Shown here: positions 30,001 through 50,839 of the stretch, piece by piece | Numbering within the stretch: the stretch's first letter is position 1 | Layout of the letters: each line of letters begins with the position of its first letter | Program-made: the position numbers | NCBI RefSeq assembly: GCF_024298765.1 | Contig: NZ_CP101210.1 | DNA length: 64,000 bases | Strand: one strand, 5' to 3' | DNA from: Escherichia coli | GTDB taxonomy: Bacteria; Pseudomonadota; Gammaproteobacteria; Enterobacterales; Enterobacteriaceae

Positions 30001-33000
30001 GGATACCCCAGATATGAGATATCTGAAGTGGTCTTTTTTGGCCTATGATACGGTCTTTGTTCCACGGTGACGTGTTCATACTCAAATCTCCTGCAATGTG
30101 GGAGATTTGAGTATGGTTGTCCTTATGAGCGAGGCGCGGAAGCTCACTTTAGGGCAATCTAATTCACATGTCAGAGGATTTATAAAAAGAGAATAGTGCA
30201 GATTTTAGGGATACTTACACTTGCTATGGCATACTTTTTGGGACCCCATCAGTTTAGGGATCTGAATCGCCACAGCTTTGGTAGGCACCTGCTTTATGGT
30301 CACGTGCACCCGAAGATCCTGCGGGTACGCATGGGTCACGAAAAGTACGAGTCTACAGAAGTTAATTTACGGTTTTTTGCGCTCGATGTGGCTGCCAGCT
30401 ACCAAGTCCAGTTTACACTGGATACAACTAACGCGCTGTAGCAACTGCGTGGTGGAAGCTGATTAAAGGAGATAATGATGTTCGATGTTGACGATACTGC
30501 ACCCGATACTCCCGCCCCCCGTGAACTCAGTCAGGATGTGCAGGCGCTGATCAACAATGGTCTGGATTTTCTGGATAAAGCCCGTGAAGAGTTGGAGGCC
30601 TCGAAGCCGAAGTTCTCCGTCGTCAGTTTCTGGACTGCGGTCGAGATTTTACTGAAAGTTCCGCTGGCGCACGAACACTGGTCGTTGGTCTGCAGCCCGA
30701 AAAAGCCAATAAAAAAGCAGGCTTACCTAGCCGGTGATTTTCAGTCGGTGACCTACGAAGAAACCCGTGAAAGGCTTAAGGACGTACTTGAAAGACCCCT
30801 AGACAGAGAAACGGACAGTGCTTTTGATAAGGTCAGAAAGCACCGCAACCGCGTAGTTCATTTCTACCACCCCACTTTCACCGAGGCTGAACAACGTCAA
30901 ATACTCAAAGAACAAGCTGACGCCTGGTTTGCCCTGAACCGGTTATTAAGGGATGAATGGAAAGTTATCTTCGGTGTCAAACATAATTGGAAGCTGGCTT
31001 TCGGTGAAACTCGTCTGATTAGGGGAAACAAATTTTATGCCGAGGTGCGGTTTAAACAGGTTAAGCCTGAACTCGAGCAGCTCTCTGAAAAGAATATTCA
31101 AATCGGTAACTGCAATGAGTGCCATCAGCATGCGACGGTAACAGGGACTGAAACGACCGGTAATGAAAACCGTAAGCTTGAAGTTACGCGGTGTAAGGTT
31201 TGCACCAGTGCTGTAAGGCAAATTACCCTAGTTTGTCCAGACTGCGAAATACCTCAATTGCTACCTGAGGGAGATAGTGATTTTGAATGCGAACACTGCG
31301 ACTACACTTCGGATAGGTATAAACTGCTGGATGAGGAGTTGTTCCACAGTGTGGATGAACAGCTACTCTCCGTATTTCCTGCTGGATGTACCAATTGCAT
31401 GACTCCTGAAAGCGTATGTAAATTTGGAGACGGCTATCTTTGCACTCAGTGTTTCATCTATTACACCGAGCTTCATGTATGTGGTTGTTGCGGTCACCTG
31501 AGCGATAGCGTTCCTGAACTGAGCCATATCCGAGGATGTGAATTTTGTGATGGTGACCAACGTTATTTTGATGACTGAATTACCATACATAATCTAGGCT
31601 CTTCAGGGATGGGTTGGACAGTCCGCTCCTGGCACAGAGCGGACTGTCAGATTAGATTCAGACCTGTACTCATTAGCTGATACAAATCAGCCACATATAC
31701 CTGCATTCCAAATAATTTCAGGCAGATATTATCTCCGTGAATCCCCCCGCCACCTTTCCGGTGCGCGGGGTTTTGTCTTTTTTCACCGGGAATACATGTA
31801 TGAATCCGTCTGATGCCATTGAGGCAATTGAAAAACCGCTCTCCTCCCTGCCTTACTCACTTTCCCGTCACATCCTGGAACATCTGCGCAAACTCACCAG
31901 CCACGAACCCGTGCCTGGCATTATGGGTAAAAGCGGGGCCGGTAAATCCTCACTCTGTAATGCACTGTTTCAGGGGGAGGTCACCCCGGTCAGTGCACTC
32001 ATGACAGCGCTTCCCGGACATGCCGCCATCCCTCTGATGACACGCCTGCAGGACGAACTGCGCACGGAGTCTGTCCGCACTCAGACCCGTGAACAGTTTA
32101 CCGGTGCGGTGGACCGGATATTTGACACGGCGGAGAGTGTCTGTGTTGCCTCTGTTGTCCGTACGGCCCTGCGCGCAGTTCGTGACACGGTGGTCTCTGT
32201 TGCCCGCGCGGTATGGAACTGGATTTTCTTCTGAACCCGGTGGTGATGTACCAGGCTGTTGTTACAGATTTTTAACTCCATGAAAACACTATGCAAACGC
32301 AGCTATACCCGGGGTGTCCCCTTGCGTTGTGCTTCCCAAGTTAATAGAATACATCGATCGTTACTATCATATCGATCGTTATAAACGATCGTTTGTAGTA
32401 AATGACCTCCTCCGTGGTTGTCATGAAAATGCGTCTCAGGAAGGTTAAATAATGCACGAAAAGAACATCGCCCTGCTTTGTGATGAAGCCGACCGACTTT
32501 TGCAACTGAACATTAATCTGCTCCGGCAAATGGTTGAGGAGCCAGATGTGTTATCTGACAGTAAGAACGAAAACAGACTGCTTTTTGATAAACAGAAAGC
32601 ACTGAAAAGAATTGAGGAGCTGGAGGGCGAACAAATCAAAACCGCCCGCAGGGAGATGGTGCTGGCTGTTGTCGGCACGATGAAAGCAGGCAAATCAACC
32701 ACCATCAACGCCATTGTGGGGCAGGAAATTCTGCCTAACCGTAACCGCCCCATGACCTCTGTACCGACGCTCATCCGCCACGTTCCCGGAAAAACTGAGC
32801 CGGTTCTCCATCTGGAACATATTCAGCCTGTCCGCAATTTATTAATCACACTGCAGGAAAAACTCGCCACCCCGGCAGGACAGCAGGTCGCACAGACCCT
32901 GCAGCAAACCGGGGATACCCGCGAACTGCTGGATATTCTGACGGATGATGGCTGGCTCAAAAATGAATACCACGGGGAGGAGGAAATCTTTACCGGACTG

Positions 33001-48000: not shown

Positions 48001-50839
48001 AAAAGGATGATATTCCGGTGGTCAGCGAAGCGAATATTCTGAGCACCTTTAAGCAACTGCATTTGAACAAGGGTGAGGTGTTTTAGCGTGGCGTCATTAA
48101 CGTTTTCAAAGGATTAAGCTGGAATTTTAAGACGAATTCGCCCTGCGGGTTTGGAGCGAAAATCATTGTGACGGGACTGGTCAAATTCGACCGGTGGGGA
48201 TTCGGGCTTAACCATGGCTGACAGCGTGACCGGTTAGCAGACCTTGAGCGAATGCTGATGATCCTTGACGGGAAGCCTGTTCCCGACAACCGCGCTGACG
48301 TTACCCGTCGGCTGGGAGACCATATTCATGAAAACCGGCACAGCAACCACTATGAGGATGAGATGTTTGTGATTAAGTATTTTCAGAAGGGAACTGCACA
48401 AATCGTATTCAAGCGACCTGAGCTGATTGATAAGCTGAACAACATCATCGCCCGACACCAATCCGGGAGCACTGCCAGCGAGATGAGAGGTGAGTGAGTT
48501 GTCTGAAGCTATTTCAGGTGAGCCAGTGCAAGCCGGACGGCAATGGCATACTGGATGGCATACCGAAAAAACAAGCATATAAAAGGCCATGCTAATCAAC
48601 AGCATGGCCTCGAATAGTGGCGGAACGGACGGGACTCGAACCCGCGACCCCCTGCGTGACAGGCAGGTATTCTAACCGACTGAACTACCGCTCCGCGTTG
48701 TGTTCCGTTGGGAACGAGGCGAATATTACGGATTGCCTCACCCTTCGTCAACGGTTTTTCTCATCTTTTGAATCGTTTGCTGCAAAAATCGCCCAAGTCG
48801 CTATTTTTAGCGCCTTTTACAGGTATTTATGCCCGCCAGAGGCAGCTTCCGCCCTTCTTCTGCACCAGATCGAGACGGGCTTCATGTGCTGCAAGCTCTT
48901 CATCTGTCGCAAAAACAACGCGTAACTTACTTGCCTGACGCACAATGCGCTGAATTGTTGTTTCACCTTGTTGCTGTTGTGTCTCTCCTTCCATCGCAAA
49001 AGCCATCGACGTTTGACCACCGGTCATCGCCAGATAAACTTCCGCAAGGATCTGGGCATCGAGTAATGCCCCATGCAGCGTTCGTTTACTGTTATCTATT
49101 TCGTAGCGGGCACATAACGCATCGAGGCTGTTGCGTTTACCGGGAAACATTTTCCTCGCCACCGCAAGGCTATCGGTGACCTTACAGAAGGTATTGGTCT
49201 TCGGAATATCGCGCTTAAGCAACGAAAACTCGTAGTCCATAAAGCCGATATCAAACGCTGCGTTATGGATCACCAACTCCGCGCCGCGGATATAATCCAT
49301 GAACTCATCGGCTACCTCGGCAAACGTGGGCTTATCGAGCAAAAATTCATCGGCAATACCATGTACGCCAAAGGCTTCCGGATCCACCAGCCGATCGGGT
49401 TTGAGATAAACATGGAAGTTATTGCCCGTCAGGCGACGGTTCACCACTTCAACGGCACCAATCTCAATGATCTTGTGGCCTTCATAGTGCGCACCAATCT
49501 GGTTCATACCGGTGGTTTCGGTATCGAGAACGATCTGGCGTGTAATTGCAGTGCTCATAGCGGTCATTTATGTCAGACTTGTCGTTTTACAGTTCGATTC
49601 AATTACAGGAAGTCTACCAGAGATGCTTAAACAGGTAGAAATTTTCACCGATGGTTCGTGTCTGGGTAATCCAGGACCTGGGGGTTACGGCGCTATTTTA
49701 CGCTATCGCGGACGCGAGAAAACCTTTAGCGCTGGCTACACCCGCACCACCAACAACCGTATGGAGTTGATGGCCGCTATTGTCGCGCTGGAGGCGTTAA
49801 AAGAACATTGCGAAGTCATTTTGAGTACCGACAGCCAGTATGTCCGCCAGGGTATCACCAAGTGGATCCATAACTGGAAAAAACGTGGCTGGAAAACAGC
49901 AGACAAAAAACCAGTAAAAAATGTCGATCTCTGGCAACGTCTTGATGCTGCTCTGGGGCAGCATCAAATCAAATGGGAATGGGTTAAAGGCCATGCCGGA
50001 CACCCGGAAAACGAACGCTGTGATGAACTGGCTCGTGCTGCGGCAATGAATCCCACACTGGAAGATACAGGCTATCAAGTCGAAGTTTAAGCCTGTGGTT
50101 TACGACATTGCCGGGTGGCACCAACCGCCTGGCGAATTCGCGGTTTATTCTTGCTCTGTTTCATCGGATTTAGCGTTAAAGGAATAGTCCGTTTCCGGGC
50201 AACAATAAGTTGTAAGCAACCAAGCGCAGGAATATGCGCATTCAATAGTTTTCCTCCGTGTTTGTTCCACGGAAGAACGTGGAAACGGCTGGCGTGTAGC
50301 ACTTCAAAATTCAACAAAGAGAGCCAGTCCAGCTGCCGCATCAGAGTGAACATCCGGCTGTTATAGGGCGATGTTTTGCGCAATACCGGCACAAGTTTGC
50401 GTAATCCCATTAAACTGATGGGATTGAAGCCACTAATCACCAGCCAGCCATCATCAATCAGTACCCGATCGGCTTCACGCAATAAACGATGCGGATCAGT
50501 GCACCACGGCAATGTATGTGCCAGTAGACAAACATCAACGGATTTATCGGCAAAAGGAAGATGAAGTGGATCCGCCTGCACCTGGACGGGCATTCCTTGC
50601 GCAGAAACATTCACTTGATGAGAAACCGCGCACGCTTCGCAATTGATTTCTGCGCTTAAATTGCCAATCTTAAGCAGATGAAAACCATACATTTTAGTGA
50701 ACCACGGGTTGAGCTGACGCTCCAGCGCCTTGCGATAAAGCTCTCCCCAGGGCAAATCGCCCCAGCAATCAGGAGCCACGACAGTTTGAGGGACTCTTGC
50801 CGGTTTCATCACAACCTTCCGTTTCACACTGAGAGGTAA

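Follow-up and report, generated by a model that had tools for sequence, protein, structure and literature searches.

The stretch of DNA analysed here, 64,000 nucleotides of Escherichia coli (assembly GCF_024298765.1, contig NZ_CP101210.1; in the following the window), contains at 31737-48694 a genomic-island module of the CP4 type that ends at a tRNA-Asp gene, and within it an operon for a dynamin-family GTPase, a YjcZ/RdcB-family protein and a patatin-like phospholipase. We consider it probable that this region makes up the third nearest to aspV of an island of the PAI-aspV type that has decayed and is immobile, and that its CP4-44-type module carries the three genes as a captured cassette under a Dam/OxyR switch like that of agn43, the antigen-43 gene (flu). 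This view starts from homology of the sequence, conservation of its sites, prevalence of the arrangement and agreement of the operon boundaries with published expression differences, all of which are directly observed; OxyR binding, Dam dependence and switching, and with them phase variation of the operon, are what we infer. On balance, and with less assurance, we also lean towards a wider proposition, namely that about one third of E. coli genomes, those of Nissle, CFT073 and ST131 among them, possess a dynamin/patatin system under the agn43 switch, that the system would be ON in some cells and OFF in others, that it possibly acts against phages, that it would be the first cargo of this switch not destined for the cell surface, and that an expression difference reported for strain MP1 is phase variation caught by colony picking. 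The elements on which the argument depends are the following.

32322..32350, plus strand: sigma-70 promoter of the agn43 type (-35 TTGCGT at 32322-32327, 17-nt spacer, -10 TAGAAT at 32345-32350), aligned with flu, cah and other alleles
32353..32390, plus strand: candidate OxyR-consensus site over three Dam sites (GATC at 32356-32359, 32374-32377 and 32387-32390)
32452..34848, plus strand: dynamin-family GTPase, paralogue of CrfC/YjdA (RdcA); Pfam Dynamin_N, E = 3e-18
34845..35750, plus strand: YjcZ/RdcB-family partner; Pfam YjcZ, E = 5.5e-71 over the full length; its start overlaps the dynamin stop
35747..36817, plus strand: patatin-like phospholipase; Pfam Patatin, E = 3e-25
36837..36860, plus strand: terminator-like hairpin with T-run after the patatin gene

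Alignment with yeeP-isrC-flu of K-12 and with cah of O157 identifies the 217-nt spacer before the dynamin gene as homologous to the agn43 regulatory region. Past the third GATC the leader remains homologous to the first 60 nt or so of the K-12 flu leader and then passes into the ribosome-binding site of the dynamin gene. No autotransporter gene is present in 32235-39100, and the first gene behind the switch is that for the dynamin-family GTPase. Over the 37 nt of 32353-32389 the sequence agrees with the OxyR consensus ATAGnTnnnAnCTAT-N7-ATAGnTnnnAnCTAT in 16 of 22 positions, a score reached by none of 2000 shuffled sequences; the experimentally established site of K-12 flu scores 14 of 22. The annotated start of K-12 isrC, which we take to be the flu leader, coincides with the first GATC, and by homology transcription should start near 32356, about 96 nt ahead of the dynamin ATG. 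Control of agn43 by Dam and OxyR is well documented (PMC3764049, PMC2909390, PMC4872104).

Conservation of the sites was assessed in an alignment of ten alleles, five located before dynamin genes (window, ST131, NCTC86, ECOD1 and Escherichia albertii, which retains the GATC triad) and five before genes of the flu/cah type. In the core the window allele is 57-70% identical to the flu/cah alleles. All 12 GATC columns and the element TAATAGA.T are invariant in the ten alleles, with 36 of the 76 core columns invariant overall (hypergeometric P = 4e-5, a value that is descriptive since the sequences are related). Among 39 contigs from metagenomes, which represent 20 sequence variants, 38 keep all three GATC sites (116 of 117 sites in the 39 contigs). 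Only three other places in the 64 kb of the window have three GATC as close together (within 40 nt).

The boundaries of the presumed transcription unit can be compared with published data. In RNA sequencing of MP1, five genes behind such a switch made up the strongest difference between two clonal stocks (PMC12922286). In the MP1 genome (NZ_CP139039.1; 13484-19572 of the locus extract) these five are the dynamin, RdcB and patatin genes and the two small genes that follow, while the upstream GTPase gene and the downstream DUF932 gene stand outside the differing set; the 217-nt spacer before the five genes has a matching promoter and GATC triad. Because the two genes beyond patatin change together with the operon in MP1 (PMC12922286), the hairpin at 36837-36860 is probably a leaky terminator. 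The terms OxyR, methylation and phase variation do not occur in that publication, and our literature searches yielded no paper linking dynamin, OxyR and GATC.

In the mechanism that we propose, the three GATC sites would lie around +1 to +35 inside the binding site of OxyR. Unmethylated sites would let OxyR bind, block transcription and shield the GATC from Dam, so that the OFF state is inherited; methylated sites would exclude OxyR and permit transcription of the dynamin, RdcB and patatin genes in an ON state that is likewise heritable, in which read-through of the weak terminator at 36837-36860 would extend to the genes for small secreted proteins. A clonal population would then be mixed, some cells being ON and others OFF for a dynamin/lipase system that is cytoplasmic and acts on membranes.

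The NCBIfam model for CrfC, NF007368, covers the dynamin GTPase from end to end with 567 bits against a cutoff of 1146, and the protein is therefore a paralogue and not an orthologue of CrfC/YjdA. Motifs G1-G4 are readable in its translation, as are the glycine-rich GGG motif, GxSxG (GASIG) and DGG in that of the patatin. Searches with patatin homologues led to orthologous dynamin-YjcZ-patatin trios in Pectobacterium, Yersinia and Pseudomonas, with patatins 50-65% identical to that of the window. The Pectobacterium cassette adjoins a CP4-like module, that of Yersinia is surrounded by housekeeping genes, and that of Pseudomonas belongs to an accessory region that also has an integrase and genes for a GTPase, RadC, DUF932 and BrxR. 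The cassette is thus a unit in its own right, which the island modules have captured. Since GATC clusters are absent before the orthologous cassettes in these three genera, the junction of switch and dynamin gene is a fusion specific to Escherichia; a protein scan with one genome per species found E. albertii alone, by a method that requires exact peptide words. The Pectobacterium and Yersinia cassettes have in common the motif TTGCCGTTAATnTATTGATTA, located about 40-60 nt ahead of the dynamin gene, which may be the native regulatory site of the cassette.

With the GTPase and lipase motifs kept, the similarity to CrfC/YjdA extending over the full length and the trio inherited together across genera, our preferred, though speculative, model is one in which the lipase acts at the inner membrane under the control of the GTPase pair. 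More speculatively still, the products would remodel or damage that membrane, possibly in a costly anti-phage or stress function worth bet-hedging. A more definite version, in which the three proteins form an anti-phage system with the GTPase pair as sensor of infection or membrane damage and the lipase as effector, is compatible with the switch, and we regard it as a tentative option that is still the best placed of the alternatives. Costly defences are typically phase-variable, bacterial dynamins have reported roles in defence (cited in PMC12922286), and the cassette keeps company on mobile islands with HEC-08 (30475-31578 of the window), with a type I restriction-modification system (ECOD1) and with BrxR and accessory genes (Pseudomonas); judged from these neighbours, a role against phages or membrane stress is plausible. 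Patatin lipases are also effectors of cyclic-oligonucleotide-based anti-phage signalling systems (CBASS), although the CBASS lipase model of NCBIfam matches here with just 18 bits against a cutoff of 200, and the operon contains no cyclase gene. Against a dedicated defence system stand the location of the Yersinia cassette among housekeeping genes and the result obtained with PADLOC, which recognised no defence system: LeoBC was matched at E = 1.6e-4 without a significant stretch and LeoA not at all.

Several points weigh against the switch as we propose it, the PADLOC result just given being one of them. One metagenome contig lacks GATC-III. If the dynamin-type alleles are taken alone, the variable columns number 18, one of them within a GATC (P = 0.16), and divergence is too low to show selection on the GATC sites. 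GATC-I and GATC-II are 14 nt apart, compared with 15 nt in K-12, a spacing that is also present in a genuine Ag43 allele. The -35/-10 pair escaped a simple promoter scan, since TTGCGT matches in only three of six positions. The MP1 comparison rests on two replicates, and its authors attribute the effect to lysogeny by the phage Kapi1 (PMC12922286). Taken together, the variant contig, the low variation within the type and the Kapi1 interpretation suggest that the GATC/OxyR region might be an inherited relic without regulatory role and the operon constitutive or controlled otherwise, for instance through cross-talk with a resident prophage. We think this unlikely. The triad, the -10 element and the OxyR half-sites are intact in all isolate alleles examined, despite 30-43% core divergence from the flu type. 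The MP1 difference is equal in both media and does not track the lytic/lysogenic decision, as its authors note; they also state that regulation of such dynamins had not previously been described (PMC12922286). The effect furthermore appears mainly in one of two near-identical copies, the signal of the second (PAI-aspV) being flagged in the same publication as a possible multi-mapping artefact. A change confined to one copy is easier to reconcile with an epigenetic switch in cis than with a phage factor acting in trans. Genes downstream of agn43 are known to follow its switch, as they are co-transcribed with it and repressed by OxyR (PMC4807369), and the pitfall of picking colonies has been documented for agn43 itself (PMC3764049). 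What was termed lysogeny-induced expression in MP1 may be a matter of phase state and not of the prophage.

That the island pair acts like chromosomal RdcA/RdcB, which modulate the diguanylate cyclase DgcE (PMC6510439) and the biofilm matrix, would suit its full-length similarity to CrfC/YjdA (RdcA), its YjcZ/RdcB family membership and a switch shared with the biofilm adhesin Ag43, yet this analogy is improbable given an identity to the core proteins of about 30% (PMC12922286), an NCBIfam score at half the equivalog cutoff, a conserved third gene that encodes a lipase and not a cyclase, and a trio that travels in genera possibly without DgcE.

An equally improbable account is that of the preliminary description, made from the sequence of the window alone, according to which antigen 43 had been replaced here by new and unusual cargo, and the island had become fixed when insertion sequences (IS) caused the loss of an integrase on the tRNA-Asp side. 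It correctly placed the cargo at the position of flu: flu is absent and the operon follows a regulatory region and the first 60 nt or so of a leader that are of the flu/cah type. Prevalence speaks against novelty. Among 5426 complete E. coli genomes the dynamin/RdcB/patatin operon is present in 2442, in up to five copies per genome; the flu-less junction, in which the regulatory region leads straight into the dynamin start codon, occurs in 1976, including CFT073, 83972, Nissle and ST131, and is the commonest context of the operon. Modules without flu and with this cargo are hence a common arrangement, the very case that the preliminary description had named as speaking against it, and even the exact 17-kb arrangement of 31737-48694 is found in 167 genomes. 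Nor does "replaced" describe the relationship well, since in O157:H7 EDL933 and 634 other genomes (635 in total) the stop codon of cah/agn43 is joined to the dynamin start, so that the operon stands downstream of the adhesin gene and not in its stead.

The cah-dynamin interval of O157 contains no promoter-like or terminator-like site, and only about 25 nt of it weakly resemble the region upstream of the Pectobacterium cassette; copies of the O157 type agree with the window over no more than roughly the final 11 nt ahead of the ATG. Deletion of cah from a cah-dynamin ancestor would be the simplest history; such a deletion, if real, is old and now widespread. The slot after the yeeP-like GTPase gene would accordingly seem to be a docking site equipped with a promoter and holding varied cargo.

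The setting of the module can be described from comparison with other chromosomes. The 17-kb stretch is 100% identical in several complete E. coli chromosomes and 99.9-100% identical in CFT073 and 83972, apart from extra IS insertions. The tRNA-Asp gene is aspV, beyond which lie dnaQ, rnhA and the rrnH operon. Aligned with strain 104, the window begins 26 nt beyond the stop codon of yafV, and thus nearly the whole island, about 48.6 kb from yafV to aspV, is in view, its distal boundary being at the window edge. From left to right it comprises the tos genes for type I secretion, an operon for iron uptake, a defence islet of 4.2 kb and the CP4-44-type module. Positions 1-15520 align with the yafV-side end of the strain-104 island and 16851-64000 with its aspV side; between the matching parts strain 104 has about 50 kb in addition, with pic, cdiAB and phosphotransferase-system (PTS)/sugar genes. 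The intervening 1.3-kb segment (15520-16851) is an inverted copy of sequence located elsewhere in the strain-104 island, and in the gene for a tosA-like repeat protein one repeat block of about 1.3 kb differs from that strain.

48585..48609, minus strand: terminal hairpin with T-run directly downstream of aspV; a homologous hairpin is located at the end of the O157 serX island (about 18560-18590 of that locus extract)
48618..48694, minus strand: tRNA-Asp (aspV), with the island boundary exactly at its 3' end

A P4-type integrase is found neither between yafV and aspV in the window nor in the annotation of the strain-104 island, and 31737-48694 contains no integrase; the sole recombinase of the island, with 202 aa, is located in the separate islet. 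The direct repeat of the aspV 3' end that the preliminary description proposed to seek at the distal boundary is likewise absent from the window, from the strain-104 island and from its distal end (up to three mismatches in 25 nt or two in 16 nt). For these two reasons the island does look immobile, and the earlier proposal of a fixed island holds to that extent. Its argument from the lack of an integrase next to the tRNA does not hold. In CP4-6 of K-12 the toxin-antitoxin end converges on thrW, with intF 33 kb away at the opposite end, and in O157:H7 the DUF4942 end converges on serX, likewise without an adjoining integrase. Homology between the aspV and serX islands covers their last 120-150 nt, hairpin included, and reaches the tRNA 3' end without a gap, and in genomes lacking the junction (n = 5138) homology to the window starts at 48612-48618, that is at the end of the tRNA. 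The tRNA-proximal end therefore reads as an intact island terminus of a recurrent type and not as a site of integrase loss. IS630, IS66 and a disrupted gene near aspV, noted earlier and borne out by RefSeq (the gene being that for DUF4942), would have favoured such a loss; the IS block, however, lies within the module and not at the place of an integrase. The terminal hairpin is probably the terminator of the tRNA transcript, and the island seems to supply the terminator of whichever tRNA adjoins it.

In STEC379 the DUF4942 end of a cah-dynamin module adjoins an intact integrase of 439 aa (17890-21507 of the locus extract), next to yagP/paoD, the position of K-12 intF; the orientation of module to integrase therefore varies among islands. 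ARAGORN called a tRNA-Gly(GCC) at 27824-27898, which might have served as an attachment site within the island. It was rejected as probably a false positive: the sequence is AT-rich, lies inside an open reading frame (ORF) and gave no match to the Rfam tRNA model.

The gene list of the module is based on the RefSeq annotation of the identical 17-kb stretch in strain 104 and on our own Pfam scans, which agree, and every element named in the preliminary description is present where it had been placed. The backbone is as follows.

31800..32234, plus strand (GTG start possible at 31737): YeeP/YfjP-type GTPase remnant (BLASTP; weak P-loop matches in Pfam; "hypothetical protein" WP_001069809 in RefSeq)
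39103..39336, plus strand: DUF905 protein (Pfam)
39358-39387: terminator-like hairpin after the DUF905 gene
39436-40257, plus strand: DUF932 protein (Pfam)
40257-40502, plus strand: conserved ORF of 81 aa
40596-41069, plus strand: antirestriction protein (Pfam)
41085-41561, plus strand: RadC-like JAB protein (Pfam)
41624-41845, plus strand: DUF987 protein (Pfam)
41864..42508, plus strand: conserved hypothetical protein of 214 aa, with a 93% identical copy in ST131
42558-42932, plus strand: CbeA/YeeU antitoxin (Pfam, RefSeq)
42979-43356, plus strand: CbtA toxin (Pfam, RefSeq)
43353-43845, plus strand: DUF5983 (YeeW-like) gene, frameshifted (RefSeq, Pfam)
43901..47409, minus strand: decayed insertion-sequence block (RefSeq)
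43924-44912, minus strand: IS630, frameshifted (RefSeq)
45060-47322, minus strand: IS66 tnpC/tnpB/tnpA, with tnpC and tnpA frameshifted (RefSeq)
47364..48497, plus strand: DUF957-like ORF and DUF4942 gene (RefSeq, Pfam)
47640-48497, plus strand: DUF4942 gene with internal stop codon

The genes for DUF932, antirestriction protein, RadC-like JAB, DUF987 and CbeA/CbtA, whose conserved order had been recognised, are collinear with CP4-44, CP4-57 and CP4-6, and their matches all exceed the Pfam gathering score; the 214-aa protein has no family match in Pfam or NCBIfam. We read the region as an ordinary, decayed genomic-island module of the CP4-44 type, already annotated and widespread. The GTPase remnant proved to be real: by BLASTP its N-terminal 85 aa, with the P-loop, are 49% identical to residues 1-80 of K-12 YfjP while its C-terminal 80 aa match the yeeP pseudogene of K-12 with 90% identity, an in-frame deletion having removed about 145 residues from the centre, and an intact GTPase gene occupies the equivalent module position in E. 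albertii, ECOD1 and NCTC86. The IS block lies between the DUF5983 and DUF957 genes and is missing from the O157 homologue; within it, 45029-45188 is 99% identical to K-12 yoeD, the IS66 remnant of CP4-44.

Between the patatin and DUF905 genes there is a segment with four small ORFs that is rarer than the operon and found in 202 genomes.

36946..37413, plus strand: exported YfjT/YkfB-family protein, 35% identical to K-12 YfjT, with a signal-peptide-like N-terminus
37469..38098, plus strand: exported protein of no recognisable family, with a hydrophobic, Sec-type N-terminus
38129..38377, plus strand: small ORF of 82 aa, doubtful as a gene, with a weaker N-terminal hydrophobic segment and no PGAP/RefSeq annotation
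38533..38985, plus strand: exported orphan protein with a Sec-type N-terminus

Of the four exported proteins that had been proposed, three have clear Sec-type N-termini and the 82-aa product, with its weaker segment and lack of annotation, is doubtful. The first belongs to the YfjT/YkfB family and is therefore a member of the backbone family set. The second gave no match in Pfam, NCBIfam, PADLOC or the PDB, and the last, among 5.8 billion proteins, matches near-identical E. coli sequences only. An IrmA-like identity was considered and dropped after three of the four (all but the 82-aa ORF) gave no significant PDB match, IrmA included. K-12 yeeR has no DNA match in the module of the window.

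Immediately upstream of the yeeP-like GTPase gene, the islet at 27353-31644 (4.2 kb) is missing from the otherwise collinear ST131 locus, whose empty site is a single 24-nt palindrome (GTCCGC-N12-GCGGAC). Copies of the palindrome at 27353, 27395, 28409, 29435 (degenerate) and 31621 alternate in orientation and bracket single genes, which encode a 269-aa hypothetical protein, an ETEC_3214-family protein, the 202-aa tyrosine recombinase (of FimB/E size and annotated as intact) and, at 30475-31578, a full-length HEC-08 protein with HEPN and zinc-ribbon domains. HEC-08 has been validated as an anti-phage gene (bioRxiv 10.1101/2024.01.29.577857). Other strains have different subsets at this site, either one cassette only or the recombinase with HEC-08 and another gene, and the recombinase is also found with other cassettes and matching palindromes in a lambdoid prophage. 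The islet looks like a cassette array with recombination sites of its own, situated at a defence hotspot.

Further GATC triads within 40 nt are present at 17898-17936 and at 44952-44990, the latter at the boundary of IS630 and IS66. In addition, four GATC lie within about 60 nt at 27110-27170 (minus strand), partly in a palindrome (27107-27144) and upstream of the gene for a TonB-dependent receptor that starts at 27102. This cluster could be another methylation-sensitive promoter; a type VI secretion promoter of E. coli is reportedly under overlapping control by Fur and Dam.

Module and cargo are common; what could matter is the proposed regulatory link between the agn43 switch and the dynamin operon. 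If it is true, the known reach of Dam/OxyR phase variation in E. coli is no longer limited to a surface adhesin but includes a cytoplasmic system for membrane remodelling in about 2000 of 5426 complete genomes, differences at these genes between transcriptomes of sibling stocks are simply explained, and mutants locked ON or locked OFF can be used to work out the function of the operon.

Among known islands the closest relatives of the module are three. CP4-44 of K-12 (yeeP-isrC-flu-yeeR-yeeS-yeeT-cbeA-cbtA-yeeW-yoeD) shares its backbone order, with DNA identities of 90% in the 3' part of yeeP, 95% in yeeS-yeeT, 81% in cbeA-cbtA-yeeW and 99% in yoeD, and has a homologous promoter and GATC triad after yeeP. 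The module of the window is located at aspV and not at the CP4-44 site, lacks homologues of flu, yeeR and IrmA and contains instead the dynamin operon and the small secreted-protein, DUF905, DUF932 and antirestriction genes. With PAI-CFT073-aspV (CFT073, 83972, Nissle, MP1) it shares the aspV junction and the tos and iron-uptake genes to the left; at about 48.6 kb the island is shorter than that of strain 104 (about 96 kb), without the 50 kb or so of pic, cdiAB and sugar genes. The serX module of O157:H7 (GTPase-cah-dynamin-RdcB-patatin-DUF932) shares the backbone and an operon that is 93% identical, and in both modules the DUF4942 end with a homologous terminal hairpin converges on a tRNA 3' end. 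In O157 the tRNA is serX, cah stands between switch and operon, and the small secreted-protein genes, the DUF905 gene and the IS block are absent.

As to the cargo, RdcA/RdcB of the core genome (CrfC/YjdA-YjcZ) likewise consist of a dynamin-like GTPase gene followed by an overlapping gene of the YjcZ family, with similarity from end to end, whereas the island-borne pair is paralogous, is always attached to a patatin lipase and has a GATC triad upstream. The Eleos (LeoA/LeoBC) and DynA defence systems resemble the operon in that a dynamin-family GTPase is carried on a mobile island; unlike in these systems, the partners are YjcZ and patatin, and the LeoBC match is marginal.

The switch itself has its nearest counterpart in agn43 (flu/cah), with homologous -35 and -10 elements, three GATC in about 35 nt at the transcript start and an OxyR-consensus site across them; the agn43 leader is about 220 nt long, that of the window about 96 nt, and in place of an autotransporter adhesin the switch of the window would drive an operon for a cytoplasmic dynamin GTPase. 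More distantly, the gtr and opvAB switches of Salmonella use Dam and OxyR to produce lineages in which genes acquired by horizontal transfer are either ON or OFF (PMC2909390, PMC3350482); they differ in having four GATC, alternative OxyR sites and cargo that modifies the cell surface.

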